Positions 16,226-56,727 of a stretch of 64,000 nucleotides of DNA are shown piece by piece. The position numbers and the translations under genes were made by a program. The stretch is taken from positions 5,568,001 to 5,632,000 of the forward strand of contig OY761556.1 of the NCBI GenBank assembly GCA_963664705.1. The letters run 5' to 3'. Source of the DNA: Acidobacteriota bacterium (lineage in GTDB: Bacteria > Acidobacteriota > UBA6911). Within the stretch, counting starts at the first letter, position 1. Each line of letters opens with the position of its first letter. The notes under the pieces were generated by a model. That model was not told the origin of the DNA, made no database searches, and saw only the letters and a program-made list of their open reading frames with translations.

Positions 16226-16301
16226 GGGGCTGTAGCTCAGCTGGGAGAGTGCCTGACTGGCAGTCAGGAGGTCACGAGTTCGATCCTCGTCAGCTCCACC
16301 A
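16226..16301 (+). tRNA. tRNA-Ala(GGC)
   Basis: 76-nt cloverleaf GGGGCTG...CAGCTCCACCA; G3-U70 pair; anticodon arm CCTGA-CTGGCAG-TCAGG; GTTCGAT T-loop; encoded CCA. Confidence 0.97.
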
Positions 16302-16346
16302 ATAAAATCAATAACTTACAGCCGCAACAAAAATCTCAAAATCAAA

Positions 16347-17076
16347 AAAGGTAACACAAAGGTAACAACCGCAAAAAATTTTTCATTCAATCTCTTTGCC
16401 TTATTTGGCGAAAAAGCATTCGTTACGACAAATCCCAACCAGTTCTGGTCCAAAATCGGGATCATGAGGGCTAACTTCTTCAGAAAATTTGCCTGAAGGT
16501 TGTGAAGACCGCTCCTTGTGGATTGTCGTCTACGAGTCAAAAGGTCGCAAGTTCGAGTCTTGCCGGGCGCACTTGAAAACAAAAGACTTGCGGATTCCAT
16601 CCCAAAGCAAAAACCCAAAAAGGTAACATAAAGGTAACAGCCGAAGACAAAATGTAACGGACGTTGCCCTCTATTGCCGCGGGACTGCGCCGTATAATTC
16701 GTTTTCATCGCGCTCTAGTCGCCATCTGCTTACCAGGACCACATCGTGCAGTGATTACAATGGAGTGTTGTTTATCGGAATGCTGAAACCTTCGGATTTA
16801 AGTTCCGTCGTAGCTTGCCTATCGGAATTATTCCAAAGATATAACTCCTAAAAGGTAGCATAAAGGTAACGGCCGAAAGCAGGAGAAGAAATGGCCCAGA
16901 AACACAGGACTTAAAAGTCAGGGAGGCAAGTTTTCCCAACCCGTTCAGGCGACCGAAGAACATCAATTATCTCTCGCCCGCTCTATCGCTTATCGTCCAA
17001 ACTGATACAAAAGAAACAAGCTCCTGATTGCTCCTTTGCATCTGTTTGAGCGAAAAAGGGGCAACAACGGGGCAAC
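16347..17076 (+). repeat. Four pairs of 11-bp-period direct repeats (GGT/CAAC), integrase arm-site-like
   Basis: AAAGGTAACACAAAGGTAAC 16347-16366; AAAGGTAACATAAAGGTAAC 16619-16638; AAAGGTAGCATAAAGGTAAC 16851-16870; GGCAACAACGGGGCAAC 17060-17076. Confidence 0.7.
16530..16572 (+). pseudogene. Degenerate 3' half of a tRNA (Arg-ACG-like), probable att remnant
   Basis: CTACGAGTCAAAAGGTC-GCAAG-TTCGAGT-CTTGC-CGGGCGCAC: anticodon-loop remnant, intact T arm and acceptor 3' strand; no 5' half. Confidence 0.7.
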
Positions 17077-17157
17077 GAGTACCTTATAGGATATTGCATT
17101 AGGTTGAGAAACTTTGCGAGACGGCTATTTGGGGAAACTGACGGATCTTTTTAATGC

Positions 17158-17202
17158 GCCGGGAGCGACCTCGCGTTAGGAGAGCGCTCCCGGCCACTTT
17201 TT
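17158..17202. terminator. Stem-loop, probable intrinsic terminator
   Basis: GCCGGGAGCG...CGCTCCCGGC 10-bp stem; T-run follows on the + strand. Confidence 0.5.
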
Positions 17203-17217
17203 CTGGCGATGGGGGGG

Positions 17218-17373
17218 TCAATCTGATCGAGGTTCCTGTATAGTGGTAGCAGGCCTCTCGTCCTCATCTGATGAGAACCTATTCGTCTCCTCATTTGAGG
17301 TTTTTTTCCAATCGGGCAGTTCATCAAATTCCCGATTGACTGTCTCGATCACCTCTTTTAACCATTCCGCCAT
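17218..17373 (-). CDS. Small 51-aa acidic protein directly downstream of the dCTP deaminase
   Basis: MAEWLKEVIETVNREFDELPDWKK...; GAGGA RBS; starts 10 nt after the deaminase stop. Confidence 0.55.
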   Translation of the reverse strand: MAEWLKEVIETVNREFDELPDWKKTSNEETNRFSSDEDERPATTIQEPRSD

Positions 17374-17383
17374 GATATCCTCT

Positions 17384-18958
17384 CTATTCAATAATGCCAC
17401 ATTCGTTGATACGTTCGCTAAGAATCCTAAGCTCTCTGAGTTCTTTTTCAAGGTACACGGCAGGATCTTCATAATAGCGAAGCTTGGCGTCCTTGGGAGA
17501 AAATGGCAGCACTGATCCGTCCTCCTTTTTACGCCTGCTCATTGTGAAAAGATTCATATATTGCCGGGGCGCAATGCCGACGAACGGCTCGAATGCAATC
17601 TGAGTGTTATTATGACGCTCCCCGTCAACAGCTATCGAATCCGGATACAATTCCGCTGTCAGGCTCTTGGCGTATGGCTCAACATAAACAACTCTGCCGA
17701 TTCCTGCTGCTACGATGTGACGGGCACACAAATGACAAGGGAACGTAGTCACATACATGGTACAACCTTCGACGGGCACACCTCTTCGCGCCGCATTTGT
17801 GAGCGCCGCCATCTCGGCGTGAACGGCTCGGCCATATTCAATCACGTTGCGTATTTTGCAATCCTTTGGCAGTACCGGTTTATCAGGGTCGAGGGCTTGC
17901 CTGACTAATTCCCTGATGTCGAGATCGGTTTGGGCTGGAGCGAGCCACTTAGCGCCCTTCAGAAGAGAAAGGGTCTCAGCGATCAGATTTCGTTTCTGTT
18001 CTTCGCTGGCGTCAACCCCCTGCTGAAAATCCCTTTTGTCGGGCTCGTCACCTGTCCAATAGAGGCCACCCCCGGCTTTGGGTACTTCGTTACAGCCCAC
18101 AGCAACAATGTCCCCTGCCTCTGTCGCGATCGCGGCTCCAACCTGCCGACCCAACTCGGCGGATCGTAGTGCTGCGGCCTGGGCATGAAACATTGCGTAT
18201 TCGGCTTTTCTTGGAGTGTTAAATGTATTGCCGAAAAGCAAATCCATAAAGCGCTGGATCGAGGGACCGAGGTTTTGCTGATCGCTCATATCGACAAAAA
18301 GGTCGGCTCTATGGAACGTGTCACGCGTGTTCTGGCCGTAGGCAGTCCCCACTTCCTCCTGATCGCGCAACATCAGTTCATCTGCTTTCGGCAAAAACTT
18401 CTCGAATGGAAATTCGGTCCGCGATTCTGCGATCCGCTTTGCAAGATGAACCCGCCGGTCCTTTGATGGCGAATATGCCGCCACTAGGTAGAAAGATGCC
18501 CCGTATATCTGCCTGAGTGCGTGCACCTCCGCTGGGTTTTTCAAGGAACGAAGGATGTGACCGCGTCGATAGACCTTCCCAGCGGCAGATTTGCCGTATT
18601 CTGCCCGCTCGTTCTTGATTTTCGCCACTCCAAGGAGAGCGACAGCTTGGTTCAGTTTCGTCCGTAGCCGAAAATCGTCGCCAGCTTCCATGTGAGTTTC
18701 TGTGTACTCGTCGAGAAATTTCGTAGGGAGGGAGTTGTACGGCTTCAAGGCGTGAAGCAGTGCGGCAAGTCGTTGTCTCGATGAGTCATATTCAAACGTA
18801 AGGAGAGCATTCTCTATTGCGCCCGACAGGCGGTCCAATTCGGTCCCGACCGCACCGACTAATCCGATGACGAGCTCCGATGCTGGTTCCGCCTTTGATG
18901 GATTGCTTTTTTGCACCTCGGGCATATTCGCCGGACTTTCTGCGTTTTCCGATGTCAT
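17384..18958 (-). CDS. Anti-phage dCTP deaminase (AvcD/Dcd-like; P-loop kinase-like + deaminase)
   Basis: ELVIGLVGAVGT N-domain; RQVGAAI, GCNEVPKAGGG, VHAEM, FPCHLC and EPYAKS motifs. Confidence 0.92.
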   Translation of the reverse strand: MTSENAESPANMPEVQKSNPSKAEPASELVIGLVGAVGTELDRLSGAIENALLTFEYDSSRQRLAALLHALKPYNSLPTKFLDEYTETHMEAGDDFRLRTKLNQAVALLGVAKIKNERAEYGKSAAGKVYRRGHILRSLKNPAEVHALRQIYGASFYLVAAYSPSKDRRVHLAKRIAESRTEFPFEKFLPKADELMLRDQEEVGTAYGQNTRDTFHRADLFVDMSDQQNLGPSIQRFMDLLFGNTFNTPRKAEYAMFHAQAAALRSAELGRQVGAAIATEAGDIVAVGCNEVPKAGGGLYWTGDEPDKRDFQQGVDASEEQKRNLIAETLSLLKGAKWLAPAQTDLDIRELVRQALDPDKPVLPKDCKIRNVIEYGRAVHAEMAALTNAARRGVPVEGCTMYVTTFPCHLCARHIVAAGIGRVVYVEPYAKSLTAELYPDSIAVDGERHNNTQIAFEPFVGIAPRQYMNLFTMSRRKKEDGSVLPFSPKDAKLRYYEDPAVYLEKELRELRILSERINECGIIE

Positions 18959-19267
18959 TGGTTCGGCCGAATTGTAAACCTAAATCGCTGCGCTGAAATG
19001 GAAATTTATGAAAAAATCACTTCGGCGATTCTCGGACAACAAACGGCGCCCTTGTTGGTGATGAGGGAAAAAGAGATGGTGGCTTCTGCTCTTCATCACT
19101 GGATCGACCTGGACAGCCCGTATCCGATGAACGTCACCTTCGGCAAATCGGGCTGTCTAGGCCGCATCCTGAACGGACCTTCGGTCTTCCAGCCGTCTTT
19201 TTTAAGATCCCTCAGCGCTTCTTTTTCCCTGCAAGTGGAGATAGTTAGGTTAACGACTAGCGTAGAT

Positions 19268-20404
19268 TCACATTTGTCTGACGAACACCTTGGACAGTAC
19301 CGAAGGCATAAGAACGGAGAGTGCTTCTTCGGTTTCATGTTGCGTTTTGTTCAGCAATTCGACTTTCGCAAAGACTGCACAAATCTTTTCCTGCCATTCA
19401 ACCGGCGGAAGCATCAGACGATGGGAAAGGATTCGATCAGGCTGCACCCGCTGTCTTCGATTGCCTAATCCCTTACTGCCCGCCGCAACTTCAGCCCAAA
19501 TCCCTGGTGATTTAAAATAACTGAATAGGAATTCCGCCTTTATGCGATCAGAACAATCAAAGGTTGGATATTCGTTGGAAACGAAGCATCCATCAAATTG
19601 TTTGGATACAATCCCATATGCTCCTTCAAACGCGAACAACCGACTATAAATGAATTGGCCGGAGTGGATTCGATTAAGCGACGATGCGCTTGTCATCATG
19701 CCATCAATAGGTGATTTGTCGAATAGTCCGCGACCGAAGCTATAGATTCCCGCATTGGGATACTTGGCATCAAGCCTTACGGGATGAGGATCGAATGTTT
19801 GGCGGATTACCTCTTCCAAAACAACAGAACTCCATCCCATTTTGCATTTGGAGCGATCGTCGAGGTCATCTCGATGGGCCATCGTTATCAATAGACTGTT
19901 CAATTCTTTGATGCTCTGTTTCCGCAAATCGCGTGCCTCGTCGACCTTTTTGGACAGTTCCTCAATCTTAGCGACAATTCGAAGCTGCTCAATAACGGGA
20001 GGGAGGGGGATTTGGACCCCAGAAATATCCTGGACCTTTAGCGATACGTTTGCGGTGCCCAGCATCAACGGTACAAAATATTCATCTTTCTTGGCCATAA
20101 GAAGGAAATACAGGTATTTCGGATTACAGATATTTAGTTCCTTCGGGAGCAGAGCCACCAATAGATTTGAAAGCGCAAATTTTCCTTCCTGAAAATGAAC
20201 CCTATGAAGAGCCGCATCCCCATGCCCAGTCGAAGAAACTAACGGTATGCAAACAGCAGGACCTTCTAGCTGATAGTTTTTGGACGTTCGCCTATACGCA
20301 GCCGTAACCACAAGAGGGTAGCTGCCTGGCTCTGTTTTCATGGCTGGAGACTCCCCTTTTATCAGAGTACAAATATCCCCAATTTGAAAATATTTAAAAG
20401 TCAT
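19268..20404 (-). CDS. hsdS: Type I R-M specificity subunit
   Basis: Two TRD-like halves ending IPLPPVIEQLRIV and LPPVEWQEKI; directly follows hsdM. Confidence 0.88.
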   Translation of the reverse strand: MTFKYFQIGDICTLIKGESPAMKTEPGSYPLVVTAAYRRTSKNYQLEGPAVCIPLVSSTGHGDAALHRVHFQEGKFALSNLLVALLPKELNICNPKYLYFLLMAKKDEYFVPLMLGTANVSLKVQDISGVQIPLPPVIEQLRIVAKIEELSKKVDEARDLRKQSIKELNSLLITMAHRDDLDDRSKCKMGWSSVVLEEVIRQTFDPHPVRLDAKYPNAGIYSFGRGLFDKSPIDGMMTSASSLNRIHSGQFIYSRLFAFEGAYGIVSKQFDGCFVSNEYPTFDCSDRIKAEFLFSYFKSPGIWAEVAAGSKGLGNRRQRVQPDRILSHRLMLPPVEWQEKICAVFAKVELLNKTQHETEEALSVLMPSVLSKVFVRQM

Positions 20405-21968
20405 GTGACGATTCCGCCAGGATTTTTCTAATTTCGTTCATGATCTGCGTAATGCGCTCTTCTTTTTGCAGAATGCCCGCGACAAGTTGTTCGGGAGGGG
20501 AATGCTCGAGGTCCTGCTTGGCATTTGGATTCTTTATATCGAGATTTACTGAGACTAAGATTCCCTTGTCATCGTATTTCAAAATATCCTTTGCCTTCAC
20601 CTTCCAGGCCAGTCCGTTTTCTTTGCGCTTTCTCGACCATTCCAAACAGGGAGCAAACTCCTCGAATTGCATCGGTTGGGTTTTGCTGTAGTTCTTTCTG
20701 CCCTCTGGGGTTGGTTGTTCGTAATACCAGATATCCCTAGTCGGGCCTGATCGATCAAAGAAAAGAAGGTTTGTAGGAATTGGCGTATAAGGCGCAAAAA
20801 CACCGTTCGGAAGTCGCACGATTGTATGAAGGTTGAATTCTTTTAGCAGCTCCTCCTTTATTCGTGCACAAACGCCATCACCAAATAGGACACCGTTCGG
20901 CACAACCATTCCGCAGCGGCCACCTTTTAGACCTCCAACCGGTCGCCGCAGTTTGCGCATAATGAGCTGCAGGAAAAGAAGCGCCGTTTCCGCGTTCTGC
21001 TTGTCCTCGGGAAAGTTTGAGAGAATACCACGCTCCTCTTCACCTCCGAAAGGTGGATTGGTGATTATCACATCAACCCGGTCTCTGTCCCCGATTTCCC
21101 TAAGCGGGAAACGCAACGCGTTCCCCGGGTCGATATCCGGATACTCAAGCCCATGGAGCAAGAGGTTCATTTGGCAAAGCAGATAGGGGAGGGACTTGGC
21201 TTCGATTCCATGGATCGTACCCCGCTGCAAGCGTGCATAGTCATCCGCTTTCTTACACTGTTTTCTCATGTGTTCGAAGGCTTCGACCAGGAATCCACCA
21301 GTTCCCGCGGCCGGATCGAGCACGGCCTCTCCGAGCTTTGGATCGATGACGCTCACGATGAACTTGATCACGGCGCGGGGCGTATAGAACTCGCCGGAAT
21401 CCCCGGCGGCGTCCCGCATCTCCCTGAGCATCGTTTCATAGAGGGCACCTAGCGTATGAATCTCGTCCTTTGACAGGAAATGAATCTCGTTGACCTTGTT
21501 GAGCACATCCCGGAGAAGGTATCCGTTGACCATCCTGTTGACGGTTCCGTCAAAGACGCGGGCGATGACATCGCGACGATCGCCGTTTGTGCTCTGGAGC
21601 GACCGCAAATACGCGAAGAGTCCCGGACCGCGTTTGCCGTCCGGCCGCGTGGCTTCGTCCTGGTTGATGAAGGCGATGAGTTCCGGTCCGGTGATGCCGT
21701 CCGCTTTGGCGGCCCAATCGCGCCAGCGGTACGGTGCTTCGACCGCAGGCCGGAATTTCTTGCCGGCGAGAGTCGCCTCTTCCTTCCGGATCTCTTCCAT
21801 GTCGTCGAGGAACTTCAGGAACATGATCCAGGTGAGCATCGGAAGCCGGTCGAGGTCGCCGTTCAGACCTTTGTCCTTCCGCATGATATCGCGGCAGGAT
21901 TTTATAAGGTTCCCTAGTTGCTGGGCCGTGGATAGAGGAATGATTGCTTTGGATTTCGTTTTAGGCAT
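20394..21968 (-). CDS. hsdM: Type I R-M N6-adenine methyltransferase
   Basis: GEFYTPR, DPAAGTGGFL and NPPF motifs. Confidence 0.95.
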   Translation of the reverse strand: MPKTKSKAIIPLSTAQQLGNLIKSCRDIMRKDKGLNGDLDRLPMLTWIMFLKFLDDMEEIRKEEATLAGKKFRPAVEAPYRWRDWAAKADGITGPELIAFINQDEATRPDGKRGPGLFAYLRSLQSTNGDRRDVIARVFDGTVNRMVNGYLLRDVLNKVNEIHFLSKDEIHTLGALYETMLREMRDAAGDSGEFYTPRAVIKFIVSVIDPKLGEAVLDPAAGTGGFLVEAFEHMRKQCKKADDYARLQRGTIHGIEAKSLPYLLCQMNLLLHGLEYPDIDPGNALRFPLREIGDRDRVDVIITNPPFGGEEERGILSNFPEDKQNAETALLFLQLIMRKLRRPVGGLKGGRCGMVVPNGVLFGDGVCARIKEELLKEFNLHTIVRLPNGVFAPYTPIPTNLLFFDRSGPTRDIWYYEQPTPEGRKNYSKTQPMQFEEFAPCLEWSRKRKENGLAWKVKAKDILKYDDKGILVSVNLDIKNPNAKQDLEHSPPEQLVAGILQKEERITQIMNEIRKILAESSHDF

Positions 21969-21976
21969 GGTTCAAA

Positions 21977-24337
21977 TCAGGCTGCATAGAGAATGGTTTG
22001 TAATTCGGTGACTGCGGCCCGCAGGTTTTCGGCTCCGCCGAAAAGGGCCGTGATCTGCGGTATGGTCCCCCGTTCCGAGATCGGCGGGACCCGCAGAATA
22101 TCTGGAATTGTGAATTCAGCAGTGCCGAACTCGATGTATTTGTCGAGCATCTCGTTTAGCACTGTGTTTGCTTCAGGCGAATACTTGTCAAAGAAATCGG
22201 TCTTTTCCTTGCGGACCATCTCTGCGCGCTCCCTTCGGGTCCGGAGCGGAGCATTGAAGGCCACATGGCAAAGAAGGTCGAAGGGATCGGCATCCGGCTG
22301 TTTTGCCGCCTCTACAAGCTCACCGAAAGATATGCCGCGCTCCTCCAATGCCTGAATGATGGAAGCCCGTTCCTCCGCGTTGCTCCATTTCGAACGGAGA
22401 GCTGCGGCGGAAGGATACATATTCCTTACCTTGTCTGCAGTGTAATCGGTGAATTTGACGACGCGGAGCTGCTTGCCGTCGGGATCGAGTTCGTAGACGA
22501 GATGGGCTGCGATCTCGATGGAACCTTCGTCCACATAGTATTTGCGCGACGGGCCTTCGGGCCGTTCAGGCGGGGTTGTGTATGCTCGTTCCTCTTCTTC
22601 CACGCCCTCTCCCGGTTTTTCTTCCTCGACCACCTCGGGTTCCCTAACCGTCTCGCCCTTGTTGTTCATCTCTTCTTCGGTCACGAGCGCGGGTTCACCG
22701 TCGAAGTCCGGATCAGCAAACAGCCTTGTAGCGCTGCCGGTATAGTCGAGGATATTGAAGTAAAGCTTGCCGTAGTCGTCCCGGACCCTTGTCCCCCGCC
22801 CGATGATTTGCTTGAACTCGGTCATGGAGTTGATCACGCGGGCAAGCACGATGTTTTTGCAGGTCTGCACGTCGACGCCGGTCGTGAGCATCTGGGAGGT
22901 TGTGACGATCGTCGGGACCAATGTTTCAAGTTCCATAAATCGGTCGAGATGACCGCGGCCGATCTTTCCCTCGTCGGAGACGATACGGGCCGTGTAATCA
23001 GGGTTCTTCTGCACCAGATCCGCATTGAGATTGTTCAACACCTTCCGCATTTCCTCTGCATGTTCCTGGTCAACGCAGAAAACAATGGTCTTCGCGTACC
23101 GGTCGGTCTTCTTGAGAAAGTCCGTTAGGTTCCGGGCAATCGCCTCGGTGCGGGCCTTCAACGCCACGATCCGTTCGAAGTCCTTGGTGCTGTACTCCCC
23201 GTCCGGGATCTCGCGTCCGAAGCGGTCGAGCTCGCCCTTGTTCGGCCGCCAGCCTGCGGCATCGGCCGTCGTCACGATGCGGTGGACCTTGTAGGGAGCA
23301 AGGAAACCATCATCGATCCCCTGGCGGAGGCTGTACATATAGATCGGATTGCCGAAATAGCGGTACGTATCGCGGTTATCCTCCCGCATCGGGGTCGCAG
23401 TCATCCCAAGCTGGAATGCAGGTTCAAAGTATTCCAGAATGTCGCGCCAGTTAGACTCGTCGCGAGCGCTACCTCGATGGCACTCATCCACGATCACGAG
23501 ATCGAAGAAATCTTTGGGATATTCGCGATAGAGGCCGGGCCGGCGGGAATCCTTTGCGATCGACTGGTACGTGGCGAAATACATCTCCCGGCTTTTTATC
23601 GCTTCGCCCTCGATCTTGTACCGGGCGTCGCCGAAGGGCGTGAAGATCTTGTCCTTCGGATCATCCACAAGCACATTCCGGTCGGCCAGGTACAGGATCC
23701 TCGGGCGGCGATACTCGCCCGTCCGGTTCCAGCGCGAGTTCCAAAGCTTCCAGCAGATCTGGAAAGCGACAACAGTCTTGCCGGTTCCCGTGGCCAGCGT
23801 CAGAAGCACGCGCTTCTTCCCCTGCAGGATGGACTTCACGGCGCCGTTGATTGCAATTTCCTGATAATAGCGGGGAGTCTTCCCAGAAAGGTGGTAATAC
23901 GGAGCCAGCACGCGCTCAGCCACTTCCGGTGGTATATTTTCGGCAGCCTTCAGGCGAGTCCAAAGCTCTTCGGGTGTGGGGAAGGACTCCAAGTCGTTGT
24001 CCTTTCCCGTGAAGAAATCGTGTTCGACGATCCCGTGGCCGTTCGTGGCATACGCGAACTTGAGGCCCAGGATTTGGGCGTATTCTTTGGCTTGCTGGAG
24101 GCCGTCTCCGGGATTTTTGTATACGGACTTCGCCTCAACGACGGCGAGCGTGAAGTCGCGACGGTACTTCAGGAGATAATCGGCCCGCTTCTGCGGGCGG
24201 CGCGTGGGCTTCGATCCGGCGACCACAATCCGGCCGTCGGTAAAACTCTTCTGTTCGCTAATCTGGTCGTCGGTCCAGCCCGCGGCATAGAGCTTCGGGA
24301 CAACGTACTGGCGGCAGGTATCGGCTTCGGTGAGCAT
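21977..24337 (-). CDS. hsdR: Type I restriction subunit R (EcoAI/EcoEI-like short form)
   Basis: ADY...VEAK nuclease motif; ATGTGKT, DECH, TATP, QIIGRGTR; D-x-FDLLCHVAF C-terminal domain. Confidence 0.95.
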   Translation of the reverse strand: MLTEADTCRQYVVPKLYAAGWTDDQISEQKSFTDGRIVVAGSKPTRRPQKRADYLLKYRRDFTLAVVEAKSVYKNPGDGLQQAKEYAQILGLKFAYATNGHGIVEHDFFTGKDNDLESFPTPEELWTRLKAAENIPPEVAERVLAPYYHLSGKTPRYYQEIAINGAVKSILQGKKRVLLTLATGTGKTVVAFQICWKLWNSRWNRTGEYRRPRILYLADRNVLVDDPKDKIFTPFGDARYKIEGEAIKSREMYFATYQSIAKDSRRPGLYREYPKDFFDLVIVDECHRGSARDESNWRDILEYFEPAFQLGMTATPMREDNRDTYRYFGNPIYMYSLRQGIDDGFLAPYKVHRIVTTADAAGWRPNKGELDRFGREIPDGEYSTKDFERIVALKARTEAIARNLTDFLKKTDRYAKTIVFCVDQEHAEEMRKVLNNLNADLVQKNPDYTARIVSDEGKIGRGHLDRFMELETLVPTIVTTSQMLTTGVDVQTCKNIVLARVINSMTEFKQIIGRGTRVRDDYGKLYFNILDYTGSATRLFADPDFDGEPALVTEEEMNNKGETVREPEVVEEEKPGEGVEEEERAYTTPPERPEGPSRKYYVDEGSIEIAAHLVYELDPDGKQLRVVKFTDYTADKVRNMYPSAAALRSKWSNAEERASIIQALEERGISFGELVEAAKQPDADPFDLLCHVAFNAPLRTRRERAEMVRKEKTDFFDKYSPEANTVLNEMLDKYIEFGTAEFTIPDILRVPPISERGTIPQITALFGGAENLRAAVTELQTILYAA

Positions 24338-24696: not shown

Positions 24697-24945
24697 ATGG
24701 ATGAACACACGAAACACGAATTTACGATATTCGTCAATAATCAGTCGTTTGAGACCCCTGCTCATGAACTTACCGGCGCAGAAACCAAAGCTTTGGCTGG
24801 CGTTCCGGCTGACTATGAATTGTTCTTGGTCAACGGGAATCAAACGTCTCCGGTAAGTGATAGCGACAAGATACATATTCACAATAACGAGCACTTTCGC
24901 GCGATCCCTTCGGGTACATTTGGTAAACGTGACCTTACCGCCTAA
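24697..24945 (+). CDS. Ubiquitin-like (multiubiquitin-domain) protein 1
   Basis: FTIFVNN...LTGAETKALAGVPADYELF...EHFRAIPSGTFG plus tail KRDLTA; AGGA RBS. Confidence 0.8.
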   Translation: MDEHTKHEFTIFVNNQSFETPAHELTGAETKALAGVPADYELFLVNGNQTSPVSDSDKIHIHNNEHFRAIPSGTFGKRDLTA

Positions 24946-25309
24946 ACTACAAAAAGAGCTCGAAGAGCTCCGTCAAGAGCATAGTATTGTGGTGGTGGAA
25001 GAGGGAGATTGGATCAATCTCACCTTTACTGGGTTTAGTTTGGAGGACGGGTTTAATATCCCCACTTCCGACCTACTTCTTCGAATACCCCGGTCCTATC
25101 CCGATGCAGGTCCAGATATGTTCTGGCTTGAAGAAGCGCTGACCCTTGCAAACGGCCAAATACCTCAAGCAGCTGAAGCAATCGAGGGACCATTTTCCGG
25201 GCGCAGATGGCGTAGATTCTCATGGCATCGCCAAGGATGGCGGCCGTCCATCGACAACATCGATGCTCATCTTGAATTTATCCGTCGCAGGCTCCGAGAA
25301 AAAAGATGA
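24929..25309 (+). CDS. E2/UBC-fold protein 1 (Prok-E2 family E-like), cysteine-free
   Basis: GTG start overlapping the Ubl gene; LLLRIPRSYPDAGPDMFW and WRRFSWH motifs. Confidence 0.82.
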   Translation: MTLPPKLQKELEELRQEHSIVVVEEGDWINLTFTGFSLEDGFNIPTSDLLLRIPRSYPDAGPDMFWLEEALTLANGQIPQAAEAIEGPFSGRRWRRFSWHRQGWRPSIDNIDAHLEFIRRRLREKR

Positions 25310-26673
25310 AACCCGTATTTATTACAATCAATTCGAACGATTGGGAACTGCTAAGACAAGGCCTCTTTACTGAAGACGGCCACGAGAATGCCGCTGTTTT
25401 ACTTTGTGGATCATCCGATACTGATACTCAACGCCGTCTATTGGTTCGTCGGATACGGAATGTGCCCTCCGACATGTATGTCGAGCGCCTTCCCTATCAT
25501 TTGGAAGTCGCATCTTCTTTTTATAACCAAATCGTAACCGAATGTCTTAACTCTAAATTATCCCCGGTTATAGTCCATTCACATCCCGGACATCATAAGG
25601 CCTGGTACTCCGAATCAGATGACTATGGCGAAAAGCGACTTCTGCCTGTCTTGGCTACGCTGCTACCGGGCACCTTGCCTACAAGCCTTGTTGTGACTCC
25701 AAAGGAAGCGACCGGCCGCGTCTTTGTAGATGGTGCCTTTATTCCGTTGGCAGGCATGACAGTAATGGGCACTCCCATGGTTAGATCTCGGTTTATCGGC
25801 GATAGTCGGGATAATGAGGAATTCTCAGAGAAGTTCAATCGCCAGATCCGGGCATTTGGAAGAGATGGGCAGCAGACAATCGAATCGTTGAAAATTGGGG
25901 TGGTTGGCGTTGGGGGTACCGGCTCTCTCGTCGCCGAGCAAATGGCGCGAGCTGGAATTCGCAATCTTCTTCTCGTTGATCACGATCTTATTGAAGAGAG
26001 TAATCTCAGTCGAATTTTTGGAGCAACCCATCAGGATCTAAATCGATACAAAGTTGATGTGCTTGCGGAATATTTGGAGAAGATAAGCGACTCTGCAGTA
26101 TCGAAGGACAACCGATCGGCCATAAAACAGACGGTGCTGGCAAGGATGCGAGATTGCGATTTGGTATTCAGCTGTGTTGATAATGACCGGACACGGGCCT
26201 TGCTTAATCGTTTCGCTCACCAGTATTTGATACCTGTCATTGACCTTGGGACACGGCTCGATGGGCGACAGGGCCATATCACGGCCGCTGCCGGCCGTGT
26301 AAGCATACTAGGGAACAGTTTTACATGTTTACGATGCTCAAATCATATCAGTGCCGAACGTATTCGGGCGGAATCCATGCCTCGTGATGAAAGGATTGCC
26401 CTACAAAAGGAGGGCTACATCATGGGCATCGACGAACCAGCTCCGGCGGTGGTTTCGATGAATACCGTTGTCGCTGGCTTGGGTGTCACGGCTGCACTAA
26501 ACCTTTTTGTTTCGCTAACAGGAGGCATCCAGCCTCTTGATCAGATTTATGATGCCCGATCTGGGTCCGTATTTCCGATAAACCCACGACACGAAAAAGG
26601 ATGTGATATTTGTGACGATACAGAGGGAATAAAAGCACTTGGAGATGTCCAAATAGTTTCAGCTTACGATTAG
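25306..26673 (+). CDS. JAB-peptidase-E1(ThiF) fusion 1
   Basis: E...VHSHP-x6-S-x2-D JAB motif; RQ...GVGGTGS, DHDLIEESNLSR, CVD, CLRC...CDIC. Confidence 0.9.
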   Translation: MKPVFITINSNDWELLRQGLFTEDGHENAAVLLCGSSDTDTQRRLLVRRIRNVPSDMYVERLPYHLEVASSFYNQIVTECLNSKLSPVIVHSHPGHHKAWYSESDDYGEKRLLPVLATLLPGTLPTSLVVTPKEATGRVFVDGAFIPLAGMTVMGTPMVRSRFIGDSRDNEEFSEKFNRQIRAFGRDGQQTIESLKIGVVGVGGTGSLVAEQMARAGIRNLLLVDHDLIEESNLSRIFGATHQDLNRYKVDVLAEYLEKISDSAVSKDNRSAIKQTVLARMRDCDLVFSCVDNDRTRALLNRFAHQYLIPVIDLGTRLDGRQGHITAAAGRVSILGNSFTCLRCSNHISAERIRAESMPRDERIALQKEGYIMGIDEPAPAVVSMNTVVAGLGVTAALNLFVSLTGGIQPLDQIYDARSGSVFPINPRHEKGCDICDDTEGIKALGDVQIVSAYD

Positions 26674-26685
26674 GTAGAGCCTATT

Positions 26686-27522
26686 ATGAGCGCGACTCCA
26701 TCCCATCCGCCGAAATTCACATTAACTCTTCGAGCCTCCCCTTTGGCAACCCGGTATTTTGAGCCGATTGCGGTTGACTTTGCGGTAACGAATGATTCGA
26801 GCGATATGTTGTTCATTGAATCATCCTCGTTGAAATTTGAGGCAGATACCGGAGCAATTCCAAACTACGTCGACTGGTCTCCTGGTTTGAGATTGGCCCC
26901 GAGTGAGCAAGGACGCATTTCAGTTGTCGTTCGACCGGTTCCTCTATACAAAGAGTTCACAAATCAATTTGACGTCCTAATAAAATACCGTCCCGAAGTT
27001 CAGGGGCGATTGGGTAAGTTATCGACTGAACAGCACGGTGGTTTTTATATAATCGTCAACACCCCTCCTGCTGATTTGGGGGATGTTTTCGTGAGTTTTA
27101 AGCAGCCCGAAGACCAGCGATTAGCAAACATTTTAGAGCGCTATGCAAAGAGAGCTGGATTCACGCCACACCTTTTCATGCGCAATCCGGCCGTTGGCAC
27201 CGACCAGTGGAGATCAATTGAAAAGCTGATTAAGCAGTCTCATTCAATGTTCGTGGTATGGGGGCGCAGGACCGAATGGGGTGAAGGAGTCGAAAAGGAA
27301 ATCGAATTGTGCCGAAAGCGACGCATGCGAGAGGTTCTCTTAATCGAGAACGACCTTGCACTACCGGACATTTATCATGGCACCAACTGCACATATAAAA
27401 GATATGATCAATCGGATCCGGCGCATGCACTATCGGAGGCCGTAAGTTCACTGCGGGATCAGATCGTCGATTCGCAAAATAGGTTAAGGCGAACCGAAGA
27501 TGCCCACACCGTGGAATATTGA
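26686..27522 (+). CDS. Ig-like beta-sandwich + TIR-domain protein
   Basis: Beta-rich N-half; C-half DVFVSF...D...A..L...G...GT...I...I..S...FVVW...GVEKEI fits the TIR_2 pattern, including the catalytic Glu. Confidence 0.75.
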   Translation: MSATPSHPPKFTLTLRASPLATRYFEPIAVDFAVTNDSSDMLFIESSSLKFEADTGAIPNYVDWSPGLRLAPSEQGRISVVVRPVPLYKEFTNQFDVLIKYRPEVQGRLGKLSTEQHGGFYIIVNTPPADLGDVFVSFKQPEDQRLANILERYAKRAGFTPHLFMRNPAVGTDQWRSIEKLIKQSHSMFVVWGRRTEWGEGVEKEIELCRKRRMREVLLIENDLALPDIYHGTNCTYKRYDQSDPAHALSEAVSSLRDQIVDSQNRLRRTEDAHTVEY

Positions 27523-27596: not shown

Positions 27597-27938
27597 TCAA
27601 ATCCATTTCACGCGATTCTGCACTATCCAAAAATGGCTATGACATTGATCTCGATACCAGAGGGAAGGGCTAATTGTCACCGAGCCTCTTCCGTATTTCA
27701 CGGTCCAGTGGGGATGATCAGTTGGACGCAGATTCACTGATAATCGATGTCCCCTACGACAGGGACAGTCAAAAATCGCCCAGAGAGGGTGTCCATGCCG
27801 TTCGACCACAAAGATAAGGGACACCGTATCATCCGGAACATCACTGACCCGCTCGACGAAACGCACGCCGGTAAAGCGCCGCCGGCGCATCAGACGCGGA
27901 GCAATACGTACCAAGAGATCGGTGAATCTTTTTTTCAT
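27597..27938 (-). CDS. DUF6527-family protein
   Basis: FDCPCRRGH...VNL...W...TISPSLW...CHSHFWI; start overlaps the E1 stop. Confidence 0.82.
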   Translation of the reverse strand: MKKRFTDLLVRIAPRLMRRRRFTGVRFVERVSDVPDDTVSLIFVVERHGHPLWAIFDCPCRRGHRLSVNLRPTDHPHWTVKYGRGSVTISPSLWYRDQCHSHFWIVQNRVKWI

Positions 27939-29314
27939 CAGCTTCCCCAGGTCATATCCAAAAACAGGTCCACATCTCCTCTCCCCCAATTAGTGCGATT
28001 TGCACAAAAGCAGTTCGCTTCCGCCGGCGTTGAATTTTTGATGATCTTTGAATCATCGAAAAGAACAAGCAACTCGGAACTGACGCGGTCCGTTCCCATA
28101 TAACCGCTAAGCCTGTGAAGAAGCTCATTGATGGCGAAAGATGCTACGGAGGTCGTGAAAGGAATGACAGCTGGCGCATCGGTATGTAGCTCCGGCACAT
28201 ATTGCTGGCGTCGGCGGCGCTCATATTCTGCTGGATCCGATTCCTCCAATACCTCTGCGGCAACCACGTCTCCGGATATCCGTTTGCGGCAAAACAGGCA
28301 CGCAGCACCCGGCAGCAACGTTGTAACACGGCCCTCAATTGCCTTGATTGTGCCATTATCCGAATCAATCTTTGCGCCCAAATCGAATACCGGAATCAGA
28401 TACCAAATCGCGAACCGCGTCAGTATAGAACGCCCCCGCTCGCGGTCCGTACATCCAAAGATCAGATCGCATTCCCGAAACCGCTTTATCACCGCTACAT
28501 TGGTTATATTTTCAGGAATGATCTCGATCGCTGTTCCCATTCCAACATCCTCAGAATGGTGCCTAAACACTTCCACCTTCGGGTTGCCGACATCGTGGAC
28601 ACGCGAACCGTGACAGCGAGTCACGTTGGATTTTTCAAGACCCTGGGCGTCTGCGATGATGAGTTTTCCGACTCCGAGCCGGATCAATTGTTCCGCAACT
28701 GCGGACCCGGTTCCGCCCATCCCGACGATTCCAACGACCAATCGGCCCAGCAGTTTCTGAAGGTCTTCACCGAAGGCCAGAACCTGCCGGGAAAAGAAAT
28801 CCAGATCGATCTCCGACTCGCGGTCCAACACAAATCGGAATCGATTGCCGATAACGCGAATCCTCTCCATGGACACGATCGTGCCGTCCTGCCGCCAGAT
28901 CCTACCGACGGGCTTTTCTGGAGAGGAGAATACGATGCTGCCGTGGATGGCCGCCTCGTTGTGTATTCGATTGTATGCCGTCCGAAACAGCGGAGCTTCG
29001 GTCCAATCATCTTGTTCGGAGTGCCCGGGAACCGTCGGGGGATGAGAGTGCGCAAACACAAAGCAGAGTTGCCGGTCGGCCGCAGCTTTTATCGCGTGCA
29101 GGAAGGACGACTGCTGGATCTGCATGTGAACATTTGAGGAATGGTCGATTTCGGTTGCCGATACCGGAATCACTTCCCGCACCAGCAGCCGATTCTCGTC
29201 CGCGCTCGCCGAAATGCCGCAAAGGAGATAGGCTGCCTCTTCGCGAGACGAGTGGAAAAGATGGTTAGTGAGCCGCTCGTAATCCTCTTCTGTGAAGGTC
29301 AACGTGAAGCGCAT
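27938..29314 (-). CDS. JAB-peptidase-E1(ThiF) fusion 2
   Basis: EEAAY...AHSHP-x6-SEQDD; RQ...GMGGTGS, SNVTR, GCTD, CLFC...CFC; start at MRFTL. Confidence 0.9.
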   Translation of the reverse strand: MRFTLTFTEEDYERLTNHLFHSSREEAAYLLCGISASADENRLLVREVIPVSATEIDHSSNVHMQIQQSSFLHAIKAAADRQLCFVFAHSHPPTVPGHSEQDDWTEAPLFRTAYNRIHNEAAIHGSIVFSSPEKPVGRIWRQDGTIVSMERIRVIGNRFRFVLDRESEIDLDFFSRQVLAFGEDLQKLLGRLVVGIVGMGGTGSAVAEQLIRLGVGKLIIADAQGLEKSNVTRCHGSRVHDVGNPKVEVFRHHSEDVGMGTAIEIIPENITNVAVIKRFRECDLIFGCTDRERGRSILTRFAIWYLIPVFDLGAKIDSDNGTIKAIEGRVTTLLPGAACLFCRKRISGDVVAAEVLEESDPAEYERRRRQQYVPELHTDAPAVIPFTTSVASFAINELLHRLSGYMGTDRVSSELLVLFDDSKIIKNSTPAEANCFCANRTNWGRGDVDLFLDMTWGS

Positions 29315-29316
29315 GG

Positions 29317-29685
29317 TTATATCCCTTTGGAGATTTCGGCGCTTACGGCGGCAATGAAGTTCCGCAGACTGTCGACACCCGAGCGCCACGTCAGATGCCG
29401 CGACCACTGCTGCCATAACTTGTTGCCGACGGTGACATGCTGGTTACAATTCTGCGGAAAGCTACCGGAGGGAAGCTTGACATCCGGGATCGTGTAAAAC
29501 ATATCCACCGCAGTCTGCGGATATCCCGAAAGAAGCCGAATCAGTATGTCGGCTTCTTTCGGTGCGTATGGACCGAAGGGAAAGCGATGGATGATCAGGT
29601 GGATTTCTTTGTCCGATTGCAGGAGCTCGTAGTCGAACTCCTTCTCCTTCAGAAATTCGATATCGTCTTCCGGTATTAGCGGCAT
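29317..29685 (-). CDS. E2/UBC-fold protein 2 (Prok-E2 family E-like)
   Basis: ILIRLLSGYPQTAVDMFY and WQQWSRH...WRSGVD motifs. Confidence 0.85.
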   Translation of the reverse strand: MPLIPEDDIEFLKEKEFDYELLQSDKEIHLIIHRFPFGPYAPKEADILIRLLSGYPQTAVDMFYTIPDVKLPSGSFPQNCNQHVTVGNKLWQQWSRHLTWRSGVDSLRNFIAAVSAEISKGI

Positions 29686-29927
29686 AGGCTTCCAGGATTG
29701 AGTTTCTTTTGGACCGAGAAGAAGTGCTCCCCATTCTTCAGCGTAAGGGGCGTGCCGTCATTAGGCACCAGCGTATCATCCACTTTCCCGTGGACTTCTT
29801 GGTACAGGTCATACATGTTCGGATCAATCGTGCCGAGCACGTATAATGCCGCACCCGTGGTCGGATTCGGCGAATCGTGCTTCTTCTTGTCGATGAAAAT
29901 CTCAACTTTAGTGTGTTCCATTTGCAT
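29676..29927 (-). CDS. Ubiquitin-like (multiubiquitin-domain) protein 2
   Basis: VEIFID...TTGAALYVLG...YDLY...LKNGEHFFSVQKKLNPG plus tail SLCR. Confidence 0.82.
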   Translation of the reverse strand: MQMEHTKVEIFIDKKKHDSPNPTTGAALYVLGTIDPNMYDLYQEVHGKVDDTLVPNDGTPLTLKNGEHFFSVQKKLNPGSLCR

Positions 29928-30071: not shown

Positions 30072-30404
30072 ATGGCTAAAATCACCATTCAAACACTCGG
30101 ACGCAAGCTTGTTGAAGCCAGGGGAACCCGGGGCATCAGGGAAGCTGCAAAAGAAATTGGAATAAGCCCGGCAACCCTGTCGCGGGTAGAGAGAGGCAAC
30201 CTCCCAGACCTGGAGACGTTCGGGAAAATCTGCAAATGGCTCAAAATCGATCCGGGGCATGTATTGGGTGTTACGCAATCCCCCACGGAAAGGCCGACCA
30301 TTGCAGTCCAGTTCCGGAAGGATCAGGCCCTTGATCCCAAAACGGCCCAGGCCCTTGCGAGCATGATCCTTGCCGCCCAGAGGGCGATCCTGGCTTCCGA
30401 GTAG
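30072..30404 (+). CDS. XRE-family HTH regulator (CapH/ImmR-like)
   Basis: GIREAAKEIGISPATLSRVERGNLPD. Confidence 0.9.
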   Translation: MAKITIQTLGRKLVEARGTRGIREAAKEIGISPATLSRVERGNLPDLETFGKICKWLKIDPGHVLGVTQSPTERPTIAVQFRKDQALDPKTAQALASMILAAQRAILASE

Positions 30405-30418
30405 TTTAAAAAGGATTA

Positions 30419-31000
30419 TTGAAGAACATGTTCCAACGTGGCTTCAAGAGCTGGTGCGAGAATGTTTCTGTCCAATTACGGAAGGAAATCGGTCTGGGCG
30501 CTACAGCACCCCTTGACCCTCATATTTTGGCAGAAAGCCTTGAGGTGAAGGTTTGGAAAGCCGGCGACGTCCCAGGAGTGGACGCGGAAACGCTGGACAT
30601 CCTGCTGCGAAAAGATCCAGATAGCTGGTCTGCAGTGACACTGCACGTCGAGACTACCGATCTCGTCATTCTGAACTCGTCCCACTCATTGGCGCGCCAG
30701 GCGAGTGACCTCATGCACGAACTGGCCCACATCTACCTCGGCCATACGCCTGCGCGAATCGACGTCACGGAAGATGGCCTTCTTATGCTGAACACCTTCA
30801 ACAAACAGCAGGAAGAGGAGGCGGCTTGGTTTTCAGGCTGCCTTCTGCTGCCTCGAGAAGCCTTATTGGCCATATGCTCTCAATCGATGGAGCACCGCAC
30901 GGCGGCGAAAACTTACGGAGTGAGTAAAGACATGTTGGAATATCGGCTCCAGGTAACGGCGGTCAACATGCAAATCAGGCGGCGGCGAATGCGTGCGTAA
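30419..31000 (+). CDS. ImmA/IrrE-family Zn metallopeptidase (CapP-like)
   Basis: MHELAH...EEEAAWFSGCLLLP; follows the HTH gene. Confidence 0.9.
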   Translation: MKNMFQRGFKSWCENVSVQLRKEIGLGATAPLDPHILAESLEVKVWKAGDVPGVDAETLDILLRKDPDSWSAVTLHVETTDLVILNSSHSLARQASDLMHELAHIYLGHTPARIDVTEDGLLMLNTFNKQQEEEAAWFSGCLLLPREALLAICSQSMEHRTAAKTYGVSKDMLEYRLQVTAVNMQIRRRRMRA

Positions 31001-50173: not shown

Positions 50174-51310
50174 TTAGGCTCTGCGGAGTTTGCCCGCCTC
50201 TTTGATTATCTTGGTAAGGCGATTGGAGAGTCGGTTGAGGCATTTGCGTTCAACACCAATCGGCAGTCCGCGCCGAAACATCTCCATTGCACGTTGAGTG
50301 GCGTGCAATGAATCGATTACCCCATCTAAACCAGTTCGAATGGGATCTGACGGTCTCGGTTGAGGAACCAGGTGTCGGGGTTTTGAATGAGCCAGTTGAA
50401 ACTCTCTCTGAAGGTCTTTCAACGCCACTTCGATATAGAGCATTGTCATGTCCGGAGAAGTGTGGCCGAGTAATTTCATCAGTACAGGAAAACTGACGCC
50501 GGAGCGAAGCATCTCTGTGGCATAGGTGTGGCGAAACTGGTGTGGAACAATGCGAGTGGAGATTTCGAGAGAGTAACAAACTTCATGCAGATAATCGCGA
50601 AGTTGACGAACGAGAGCATACTTGGTGCTAGGCCGTGCAAGCAGTCGACCGTCAGGAGGACACGGATCTAGAAAACGAAAGAATCGCAAGCGTTGGATAA
50701 TCGCGACTATCGACGAATCCACCGGGACCATCCGTTCTGTTTTGAGTTTACCAAGTGGTACGTGAATGGCCCACTGGCGGAGACCGGTCGAGCGGAGGCA
50801 ATCGACGGGCAAATCGGCGCACTCGCCAATGCGCATGCCGGTATGGCGGAGGAGCAGAAAGACATTCGATCCCAGATCGTTGCGCTTGAGGAACTCCTTC
50901 TGCAGAAGCTGATCCTGTTCGGCGGTGAGCGGACGTGCAAGTCTGTGCGGGCGGCGAGGGATATCTTCACGACGAATCAAGCGGGCGACTTGAGGAAGCT
51001 GTTTGGTCCACGCCAGTTCTATGAACAGAGGGCGTAAAGCGATGAGCTTACCGATATAGGTGGATGTGGCGAGCGGAGGCGTCTGGGCGCGCAAGTGGGA
51101 CATCCAGCCGAGGAGGTGTGGCTCCCGCCGCAGTTGTTCGAGAGAATTCACCTCGGGGAAATGGGCGCCCAGATAAGTAAGGAAGTTGCGTACGGTCCCG
51201 CGATACTGGACCTGGCTTGCTGAGCCGAGCGCAATACAGAGCGAATCGACCGCGCGATCAAAGACATCAACCAGTGGATGTGAGAGGGGAGGACGCCAGG
51301 AGCGTTTCAT
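50174..51310 (-). CDS. Tyrosine recombinase B
   Basis: TGMRIGE, GKLK, HQFRH and LGH...Y catalytic set. Confidence 0.93.
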   Translation of the reverse strand: MKRSWRPPLSHPLVDVFDRAVDSLCIALGSASQVQYRGTVRNFLTYLGAHFPEVNSLEQLRREPHLLGWMSHLRAQTPPLATSTYIGKLIALRPLFIELAWTKQLPQVARLIRREDIPRRPHRLARPLTAEQDQLLQKEFLKRNDLGSNVFLLLRHTGMRIGECADLPVDCLRSTGLRQWAIHVPLGKLKTERMVPVDSSIVAIIQRLRFFRFLDPCPPDGRLLARPSTKYALVRQLRDYLHEVCYSLEISTRIVPHQFRHTYATEMLRSGVSFPVLMKLLGHTSPDMTMLYIEVALKDLQREFQLAHSKPRHLVPQPRPSDPIRTGLDGVIDSLHATQRAMEMFRRGLPIGVERKCLNRLSNRLTKIIKEAGKLRRA

Positions 51311-52353
51311 GAAGGGAGCCTCGGAAGGGGGCGGACTTGCAGCGCTACTGCGCGCGTATATTGCTGGTAAACGTCTTGTGGGGTGACCTGCACATAATGC
51401 AGGGTCGTCTGAATATCGGAATGCCCCATCAACTGCATAAGTGCCGGCAGGCTGATTCCGGCGCGTATCATATCGGAGGCGAAAGTGTGGCGGAACCGAT
51501 GCGGGTGAGCAAGCTTAATACCAGTACGCTTGCGGTGGTAACGGAACAATGACCTCAGTCCGGCCAGAGTCATACGGGTTCCGCGGGCCTGCCCCTTTAG
51601 CGAGACGAAAAGCGCAGCGGTGGCAACCTGGGGCCGTTCCATCCGCCGATAGTGGTCGAGGAGCTGCACGGTTTCCGGCGCCAGTGGCAGTAAGCGTAAT
51701 TTGTTGCCTTTGCCGCGTACGCGCAGCTGTGCTTCGGAGAGCAACAAGTCGTCCTGATTTAGACCCAACACTTCGGCCGAGCGCAGTCCTTGAAAAAGCA
51801 TCACTCCAACAAGAGCCAAATCGCGAGCCATGCGGAAACTGGACCAAAAACGTGCCACCTCGTCCACCGAGAGCGGAACAAGTTGGCGTTTGGGCACCTT
51901 CACTCGCAGCCGGCTCATGGCCAGCCGTCGACGGCCCAGGCCCAGCGGTCCACGCCGCAAATAAACATGCTGGAAGCCCTGTGCCATGGACGAGGGGGAG
52001 TCAGGAAACTGATTGCGAAGAGCGCGATCGGCAACGCCAACACGGTGATTGATTGTATAACTGGAAATCGGGGGTTGGTGGTTACACTGAAACTTCAGAT
52101 AATCCGGGAGAGTCGATTCGGTCAGGTCGGCTGTGCAAACATCGGCGGTGTGATGAAGACTCTCCCACCAGCGAACAAAATGTAGCAGGTAGTAAGCCCA
52201 TGCTCGCAGAGTAGTATCCGCCAACCGGCGGACATACTCGTGATCGAGGTAGCGATTGACCCAGCCAATCTCCTGACCAGTTTCTTGCTCGACCACACGA
52301 ACCGGGCTTTGTGCGGTGTTGCGAATCTGCGGGCGAATCACACAAAATTTCAT
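51307..52353 (-). CDS. Tyrosine recombinase A
   Basis: GLRSAE, GKGNK, HRFRH and MGH...Y; ATGA overlap with recombinase B; start tentatively MKFCV. Confidence 0.92.
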   Translation of the reverse strand: MKFCVIRPQIRNTAQSPVRVVEQETGQEIGWVNRYLDHEYVRRLADTTLRAWAYYLLHFVRWWESLHHTADVCTADLTESTLPDYLKFQCNHQPPISSYTINHRVGVADRALRNQFPDSPSSMAQGFQHVYLRRGPLGLGRRRLAMSRLRVKVPKRQLVPLSVDEVARFWSSFRMARDLALVGVMLFQGLRSAEVLGLNQDDLLLSEAQLRVRGKGNKLRLLPLAPETVQLLDHYRRMERPQVATAALFVSLKGQARGTRMTLAGLRSLFRYHRKRTGIKLAHPHRFRHTFASDMIRAGISLPALMQLMGHSDIQTTLHYVQVTPQDVYQQYTRAVALQVRPLPRLPS

Positions 52354-52390
52354 AGCAGAGCCAAGCTCCAGAAAAGAATGTGTATCAGAG

Positions 52391-52708
52391 TCAGGCAGCA
52401 GGAAGTTCAAGTACCTGGTAGACTCCATCTTTGAATGCGATCAGATCTCGCGCCAGGAGTTCATTACGGGCGCCGGTAAGTTCGTGGCGGTGATGAATCT
52501 CGAGGAGTTCCTCCATACGTTCGTCGGAGTAAAAACTCACACCATCTCGATTAGCAACTGAGACCAAGACCAAGTAGAGAAGCTTTTCCAAGCGGGTTAG
52601 TCCCTGATCGAAACCCTGCCGAAAAAAGCGATGGTCAATCCAACTGAAAGAACCGCTGATGGCGCGGAGTCGGTCCGGCTGTAGCGGTTGAGGTCGTTTG
52701 TTCATCAT
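52391..52708 (-). CDS. Small winged-helix-like accessory protein
   Basis: RLR.I.GSFSWIDHRF...LY..L..VA.R.G.SFYSD...YQVL.LP. Confidence 0.7.
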   Translation of the reverse strand: MMNKRPQPLQPDRLRAISGSFSWIDHRFFRQGFDQGLTRLEKLLYLVLVSVANRDGVSFYSDERMEELLEIHHRHELTGARNELLARDLIAFKDGVYQVLELPAA

Positions 52709-56690: not shown

Positions 56691-56727
56691 AGCAGAGCCA
56701 AGCTCCAGAAAAGAATGTGTATCAGAG

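Follow-up and report, generated by a model that had tools for sequence, protein, structure and literature searches.

A BubE-less Bub-type ubiquitin-like cassette with a putative Ig-TIR effector in bacteria and archaea

A Bub-type ubiquitin-like (Ubl) cassette that lacks BubE and carries a putative effector with an Ig-like and a TIR domain (Ig-TIR) occurs in bacteria and archaea; this combination is real, conserved, and apparently undescribed. It was found in the window, i.e. the whole 64,000-nucleotide stretch of Acidobacteriota DNA analyzed here, where Ig-TIR is the last of four genes in the co-directional run Ubl, E2, JAB-E1, and Ig-TIR (Table 1). The Ig-TIR ATG is located 12 nt past the JAB-E1 stop at 26673, and close homologues share this start position. 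Both this spacing and the place as fourth gene of a ubiquitin-like operon, its preceding genes being assigned by Pfam, agree with the original prediction made from the sequence. The stretch was present in one piece and without differences in two runs, possibly its source. Promoter and terminator scans of the locus remained at chance level.

The chemistry of Bub operons has been solved; their targets and biological role are still to be found. With a predicted NADase encoded in the same cassette, a Bub-type system could be followed directly through NAD+ level or toxicity, and it would supply a candidate protein that carries or reads the tag. These puzzling tagging operons would thereby gain a first testable output.

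Table 1. Features of the cassette and its surroundings in the window
Feature	Position	Strand	Remarks
tRNA-Ala, dCTP deaminase defence gene, type I restriction-modification operon	16226..24337		Upstream context
Ubl, single-domain, BubA-like	24697..24945	+	PF14452, E = 2.9e-6
E2, BubB-like, Cys-free	24929..25309	+	PF14462, E = 1e-22; GTG start overlaps Ubl tail
JAB peptidase-E1 fusion, BubCD-like	25306..26673	+	PF14464 and PF00899
Ig-TIR protein	26686..27522	+	278 aa; subject of this study
Ig-like beta-sandwich (predicted)	26707..27063	+	Residues ~8-126; AlphaFold2, structure matches, conservation
TIR domain	27079..27471	+	Residues ~132-262; structure matches, SPARTA alignment, conservation
Second type I Bub operon, complete, convergent	27597..29927	-	Stop 74 nt from TIR stop
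Second-operon BubE/DUF6527	27938-27597	-	Last gene of second Bub operon
Second-operon JAB-E1	29314-27938	-	30% identical to TIR-linked E1; in BubE clade
Second-operon E2	29685-29317	-	Part of second Bub operon
Second-operon Ubl	29927-29676	-	Ubl split from E2
CapH-like HTH and CapP-like peptidase	30072..31000	+	HTH_3, Peptidase_M78 (Pfam); capH, capP (PADLOC); divergent from second operon

The Ig-TIR protein and its predicted chemistry

Twenty-nine close homologues of Ig-TIR (38-75% identity) and 137 family representatives in a 50%-identity library, mostly 230-290 aa long or fragments, were obtained, and the family so defined has a constant two-domain layout. In the AlphaFold2 model (pLDDT 92), an all-beta N-domain precedes an alpha/beta C-domain. 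Foldseek with the whole model returned only poor two-domain matches, no NCBIfam family covers the protein, and PADLOC yielded Argonaute-linked TIR models only. Longer fused forms were absent at 1e-15 among 7988 scored, and neither of just two candidates examined was a stand-alone Ig domain; both are weak tests. Two irregular copies, a frameshifted TIR (L016:2369-3029) and, at the end of a contig, a partial TIR repeat in inverted orientation (L001:3435-3689), may be assembly errors.

Pfam TIR_2 matched residues 134-211 of the window protein with E = 6e-5 and 24 bits, below the curated cut-off of 28; five of six distant relatives scanned exceeded the Pfam TIR cut-off. A profile of 99 relatives searched against the PDB had SPARTA TIR-APAZ as its best match (E = 8e-10), and all 21 rows were TIR proteins. 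Furthermore, model residues 127-269 matched TIR-1, MAL, and SARM1 TIR (Z 12.8-13.6, rmsd about 3 Å over 121-130 residues). Nucleoside deoxyribosyltransferases tied with these structure matches (Z 12.9); the sequence profile matched TIR proteins only. Model and profile search both led to a TIR fold in the C-terminal half, so the objection raised with the original prediction, that the fold might be another one, fell away.

Within GVEKEI, the motif originally proposed to contain the catalytic Glu, E205 (second E, codon 27298-27300) was the sole invariant column (99/99 relatives) and aligned with SPARTA E77. The same alignment paired G171 with G42, D173 with D44, W175 with W46, G201 with G73, and Y230 with Y105. 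Roles are assigned to these residues in SPARTA: E77 is the catalytic Glu, the head-to-tail interface on which activity depends is built from G42 and D44, adenine is stacked by Y105 in a docked model, and the position of the Trp required for ADPR cyclization is taken by G73 (10.1101/2023.07.14.549122). Among the 99 relatives, the BB-loop residues G171 and D173 were conserved in 95 and 51, W175 in 98, and an aromatic residue at position 230 in 78. K139, conserved in 81 of 99, is a candidate conjugation site or an active-site residue. The cyclizing Trp at E-4 was absent from all 99, and Gly occupied its place in 30 of 30 close ones. The TIR domain is predicted from these residues to be an oligomer-activated hydrolase giving linear ADPR; that Ig-TIR hydrolyses NAD+ is quite probable.

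The C-termini of the 99 relatives vary and a late Gly occurs in a subset only; the TIR protein as a conjugated modifier was rejected for lack of a conserved Gly conjugation tail. No conserved receptor gene was located 3' of TIR in the loci listed. Pfam revealed no nucleotide cyclase among 15 + 24 window proteins and 39 locus proteins, a scan that covered part of the locus neighbours.

Alternatively, the TIR domain could make a signal, a cyclic or other ADPR derivative, for a receptor encoded elsewhere, as in Thoeris. Not every TIR signal requires the cyclizing Trp, and weak ThsB_TIR matches (E 0.004-0.13) were obtained. Thoeris operons with Cap2/Cap3 enzymes exist as well (10.64898/2025.12.03.692087). 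Against such signalling stand the lack of a conserved gene 3' of TIR, of the cyclizing Trp, and of a conjugation tail, and we regard it as quite improbable. Because both cyclizing Trp and downstream receptor gene are missing, NAD+ depletion appears likelier than signalling, and the TIR domain therefore points to a terminal effector. Thus, of the two roles originally offered for the TIR domain, the NADase gained support from the SPARTA-like residues and the missing Trp and the signal producer became less likely.

The N-domain was all-beta with a pLDDT of 96 (AlphaFold2). Its best structure match was a TRAP subunit (Z 11.2, rmsd 3.0 over 116), followed by Spo0M (Z 10.8), band 4.2 (Z 10.2), and ApaG (Z 10.1). 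A beta-rich, Ig-like N-terminus of about 125 aa had been anticipated, and the model and its Ig-sandwich matches bear this out. Such matches are generic, and no function is derivable from them. No named family was found for this domain, and CARDB-like look-alikes are a lead only. Conserved residues were Y24, N36 (94/99), F51, T92, and N93 (89/99); mean column conservation among the 99 relatives was 0.31 for the Ig domain versus 0.45 for TIR.

Tagging genes and genomic neighbourhood

The Ubl carries Gly76 (codon 24922-24924) followed by a 6-residue tail, which is predicted to be removed by the JAB domain. Gly76 was invariant across 23 aligned Ubls, several of which terminate exactly there; TIR is also found next to Ubls just 29-34% identical to that of the window. 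The E2 profile had Citrobacter BubB as its sole match (E = 3.6e-6). The window E2 contains D63, S98, and H100, and the Asp plus S-x-H were found in 17/17 TIR-linked E2s.

The E1 profile matched Citrobacter BubCD with E = 7e-75, the runner-up reaching 1e-27. JAB-E1 contains the JAB residues E27, H91, H93, and D105, the adenylation residue R236, and Y371 in the crossover loop. The latter aligns with BubCD Y370, so that Tyr, not Cys, occupies the catalytic place. These key residues were invariant in 14 aligned proteins and present in 16/16 TIR-linked E1s, with the JAB Glu checked in the 14-row alignment. Residues needed in Bub are JAB E28/D104, E1 Y370, and E2 S333/H335 (PMC11601596). The tagging genes are of Bub type and keep the oxyester residues, from which conjugation activity is predicted. 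A frameshift error as the origin of separate Ubl and E2 genes was rejected: the split was present in 11/11 metagenome loci reaching it and occurs in Bub Table S1 (PMC11601596).

In the 14 loci where 1.2-8 kb of DNA past TIR was available, BubE was absent; as a control, a divergent BubE was recovered by the first BubE model with E = 6e-20. Likewise, no BubE was located within 1.5 kb of any of 13 JAB-E1 loci of an archaeal sample. The BubE of the second Bub operon in the window and in locus L004 might act in trans. In L004, the TIR cassette and a second complete Bub operon are arranged in tandem; L049 contains two convergent TIR cassettes.

The upstream context of the window cassette is the edge of a defence island. 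Defence neighbours of Ig-TIR cassettes were type I RM, Wadjet JetA, DarTG, and HEPN; CapH/CapP, Wadjet, and DarTG are named here after PADLOC and Pfam matches. Divergent regulators were observed upstream of archaeal TIR cassettes (L049:266-1006, L107:3038-3817, and L050:5103-5849, all on the minus strand), either CARF-like/winged-helix HFX_2341/DUF6293 proteins (L049 by Pfam, L107 by eye) or TrmB. The window also encodes a 997-aa Upf1-like helicase with PLD-like and zinc-ribbon domains (31692-34685), which matches Mokosh MkoA/MkoC models, a tandem pair of tyrosine-integrase genes that occurs twice, with identical ORF lengths and the copies 4.3 kb apart (50174-52428 and 54511-56765), and an IS21 element (60741-63064).

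In loci L062-L064, L103-L105, and L102:1811-5906 (a Bradyrhizobium plasmid), a 490-530 aa TCAD9/APH kinase-like gene lies between JAB-E1 and BubE. This kinase is a second kind of output module inserted in Bub operons, and the kinase-linked E1s form one branch. Kinase cassettes without BubE were considered and rejected, BubE being located after the kinase. Bub operons acquire output modules, TIR here and the kinase elsewhere.

Linkage of Ig-TIR to the cassette and history of the cassette

Co-occurrence with Bub-like genes had been named as a check of the original prediction. JAB-E1 was located directly upstream of 20/20 other Ig-TIR genes with visible upstream DNA, and the objection that homologues are not linked failed. 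A metagenome scan yielded 342 stretches with 16 relatives, two of them starting inside the gene; the other 14 all had JAB-E1 directly upstream, a set that includes the near-duplicate pairs L008/L009 and L011/L016. Ubl and E2 were also present in 11/11 of the metagenome loci reaching far enough. A genome scan with a distant-relative motif gave 22 stretches; the four relatives among them, one from a Terriglobia MAG and the others from three Nitrososphaerota MAGs, were each part of such a cassette. Upstream of the second TIR copy of L049 an E1 C-terminus was found at the contig edge, and G532 from a 251-genome archaeal sample was a fifth genome with a cassette-linked Ig-TIR; altogether, 6/6 Ig-TIR genes in five genomes follow JAB-E1.

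The spacing between JAB-E1 and TIR ranged from -8 to +12 nt in 14 measured loci. Linkage persisted down to 18-22% TIR identity and was observed in Acidobacteriota, metagenomes, and Nitrososphaerota archaea. Ig-TIR without the cassette was found for 0/21 genes with visible upstream DNA (window included), most of the 137 family representatives coming without genomic context here. The first genome scan with a close alignment (27 stretches) and a scan of viral contigs (17 stretches) returned no relative, and plasmids gave no TIR match. Among 401 genomes of the window's own phylum, 26 had a match at 1e-8; only that in the window's genome was full-length, the others being TIR-only.

The reverse relation was analyzed in three samples, which include many incomplete MAGs. 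The archaeal class sample (251 genomes) contained 13 JAB-E1 loci in 10 genomes, with Ig-TIR next to three, two of these genomes having first been found via TIR, and not to the other 10; TIR-less archaeal cassettes include close sisters of TIR-linked ones. The Terriglobia-class sample (301 genomes) contained 19 loci: eight with BubE next, three with a kinase and then BubE, one with Ig-TIR, which is the centre genome of that sample, and seven with none. In the own-phylum sample (301 genomes), 13 loci comprised one with TIR (the window), four with BubE, and eight with none, one of these in G024, an unpublished genome on which no conclusion rests. The Terriglobia-class and own-phylum samples have one genome in common, which suggests that the own phylum is Acidobacteriota. 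The archaeal genomes furthermore contain three-gene Ubl-E2-JAB/E1 cassettes (L078-L088), as many as three in one genome, for which both BubE and TIR are missing within 1.5 kb and whose Ubls differ in the type of their ends. The window's genome contains a third such JAB-E1 outside the window (L101); TIR, BubE, and kinase were all absent within 1.5 kb of it.

Thus, TIR is rare and optional for the cassette and was never seen without it, i.e. the link is one-way. TIR-less cassettes are common; therefore, tagging has its own job. That TIR is a dedicated part of the cassette is very probable. The contrary reading, an unrelated passenger of a defence island, draws on the cassettes that work without TIR and on the location of the window in such an island. 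It is strongly disfavoured by the 20/20 linked homologues and conflicts with the same slot, coupled spacing, three E1 lineages, and two domains of life, with flanks that differ per locus; we consider it highly improbable. The one-way dependence and the lack of BubE would also fit Ig-TIR as a guard of the tagging pathway, with conjugation or binding of a Bub protein keeping TIR off until a phage inhibitor of the pathway releases it. The TIR copy of L016 is frameshifted, which may be an assembly error, but no TIR-only remnants or losses could be arranged in a time order, and a guard seems improbable.

An E1 tree was calculated from 35 of 45 rows (quick LG+G4; three long rows and seven near-copies left out), and a 45-row tree was also built. 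It contained a BubE-linked branch (99), a kinase-linked branch (99), and a bacterial TIR-linked branch (100), the last sampled almost wholly via TIR, so its purity is no test. Archaeal TIR-linked E1s formed two further branches, intermixed with TIR-less E1s. A single clade for all TIR-linked E1s was rejected (p-AU 3e-80), leaving three distinct E1 lineages. Since the link is kept at 18-22% TIR identity beside three E1 lineages, it is not one inherited block.

Four archaeal cassette TIRs formed one branch (96); their E1s are about 30% identical between two groups. This could reflect transfer of TIR from one cassette type to another or, alternatively, an ancient TIR with frequent loss. For 11 bacterial pairs, TIR and E1 identity correlated with rho 0.93 (0/5000 shuffles); such congruence among kin is co-inheritance, not interaction. 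The TIR protein changes faster than E1 (22% versus 53% identity, window versus L047).

Proposed mechanism and comparison with known systems

We tentatively propose, giving it close to an even chance, that the Ig-TIR NAD+ hydrolase is the killing output of the cassette and is switched on by Ubl conjugation. A gating of TIR assembly by Ubl conjugation or Ubl binding, as originally suggested, is thus kept as a hypothesis. As established for Bub, the Ubl is cut back to its Gly by JAB; after adenylation by E1, it passes via Tyr and Ser oxyesters to a lysine of the target. Upon infection or stress, the tag may land on Ig-TIR itself or on proteins read by its Ig domain. Tagging would cluster the TIR domains head to tail and complete a two-subunit active site, and the clustered TIR would hydrolyse NAD+ to linear ADP-ribose so that the cell arrests. 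No cyclase or second messenger would be required, and with BubE missing, erasure of the tag would fall to the JAB domain alone.

Ig-TIR strictly occurs together with an intact ligase set, whichever of the three E1 lineages is involved, as a reader or substrate of the tag would be expected to. Against this explanation speaks the divergence of the Ubls, which a strict reader would need to follow down to 29-34% identity with that of the window. Complex prediction of Ig-TIR with mature Ubl scored 0.00 and gave no answer, which counts neither for nor against. The wider notion that oxyester Ubl tagging is itself the alarm, directly assembling an Ig-TIR NADase across two domains of life without cyclase, messenger, or dedicated eraser, is possible and is held slightly more cautiously. 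If true, ubiquitin-driven signalosome assembly would have a counterpart in prokaryotes, and a defined output would be assigned to a Bub pathway for the first time.

A serious rival by analogy is that the Ig domain directly senses a phage or virus protein and alone clusters the TIR NADase, with the Ubl machinery running in parallel or tuning (priming or restraining) it. A precedent is pSlfn5, whose Ig-like domain recognizes a phage tail chaperone; exchanging this domain swaps specificity (PMC13056530). Faster divergence of the Ig domain than of TIR is what a phage sensor should show, and the TIR protein in turn diverges faster than E1. However, a self-sufficient sensor-effector should occur alone, which none of 21 genes does, and the likeness to the Schlafen Ig domain comes without any homology seen. 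Direct sensing is therefore judged rather unlikely, and activation by tagging is kept as the working model.

No published description of a Bub cassette paired with Ig-TIR was found, subscription papers and bioRxiv supplements being outside the search. Text searches for 'TIR' returned nothing in the available text of PMC11601596 with both supplements, of PMC1779556 (6e operons), and of 10.1101/2024.11.21.623966; 10.1101/2022.05.11.491447 and PMC13434031 were also covered. Cluster tables of the Thoeris survey may list the Ig-TIR family. The published generalization of BubE to every Bub operon is based on a table compiled from DUF6527-containing operons (PMC11601596). The table could not hold TIR cassettes because it was built on BubE, which these lack, and a BubE-based catalogue misses BubE-less lineages in Acidobacteriota and ammonia-oxidizing-type archaea. 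Elsewhere, Ubl systems were described beside caspase effectors in FtsH ternary systems (PMC7159879); in the text available, Bub is not shown to protect against phage (PMC13373217).

Several known systems resemble the cassette in part. SPARTA TIR-APAZ, a short Argonaute NADase, is the nearest solved TIR by profile and has counterparts for the active-site residues; the window TIR has no APAZ or Argonaute, its partner being the N-terminal Ig-like sandwich and its neighbours conjugation enzymes. The Schlafen protein pSlfn5 likewise fuses an Ig-like domain to a toxic enzyme, but it is a stand-alone nuclease without Ubl machinery, and the Ig domains are likened by fold, not homology (PMC13056530). 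Thoeris with Cap2/Cap3, type II CBASS, and Pycsar with TIR also combine TIR and E1/E2/JAB enzymes in one operon. There, the TIR, which itself carries the tail in such Thoeris operons (10.64898/2025.12.03.692087), or the cyclase is a tailed, conjugated modifier, the E2-E1 fusion is of Cys type, and a nucleotide signal is made; here, a separate Ubl, Bub-type chemistry, a separate Ser-type E2, and a tail-less TIR were found, and neither cyclase nor receptor was seen. Bil (bacterial ISG15-like) has separate Ubl, E2, JAB, and E1 activities as well, but uses catalytic cysteines, tags phage tail proteins, and has no TIR effector in the source available (PMC11601596), in contrast to the Cys-free E2 and the E1 Tyr found here.

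The closest system is type I Bub (6E.1; Citrobacter BubAB, BubCD, and BubE; PMC11601596), with which the cassette shares the Ubl, the Ser/His/Asp E2, the JAB-E1 with its crossover Tyr, and the gene order. Judged by these residues, the cassette would work like type I Bub, but it fails one defining feature, bubE (DUF6527); it carries Ig-TIR in fourth place and belongs to separate E1 lineages.
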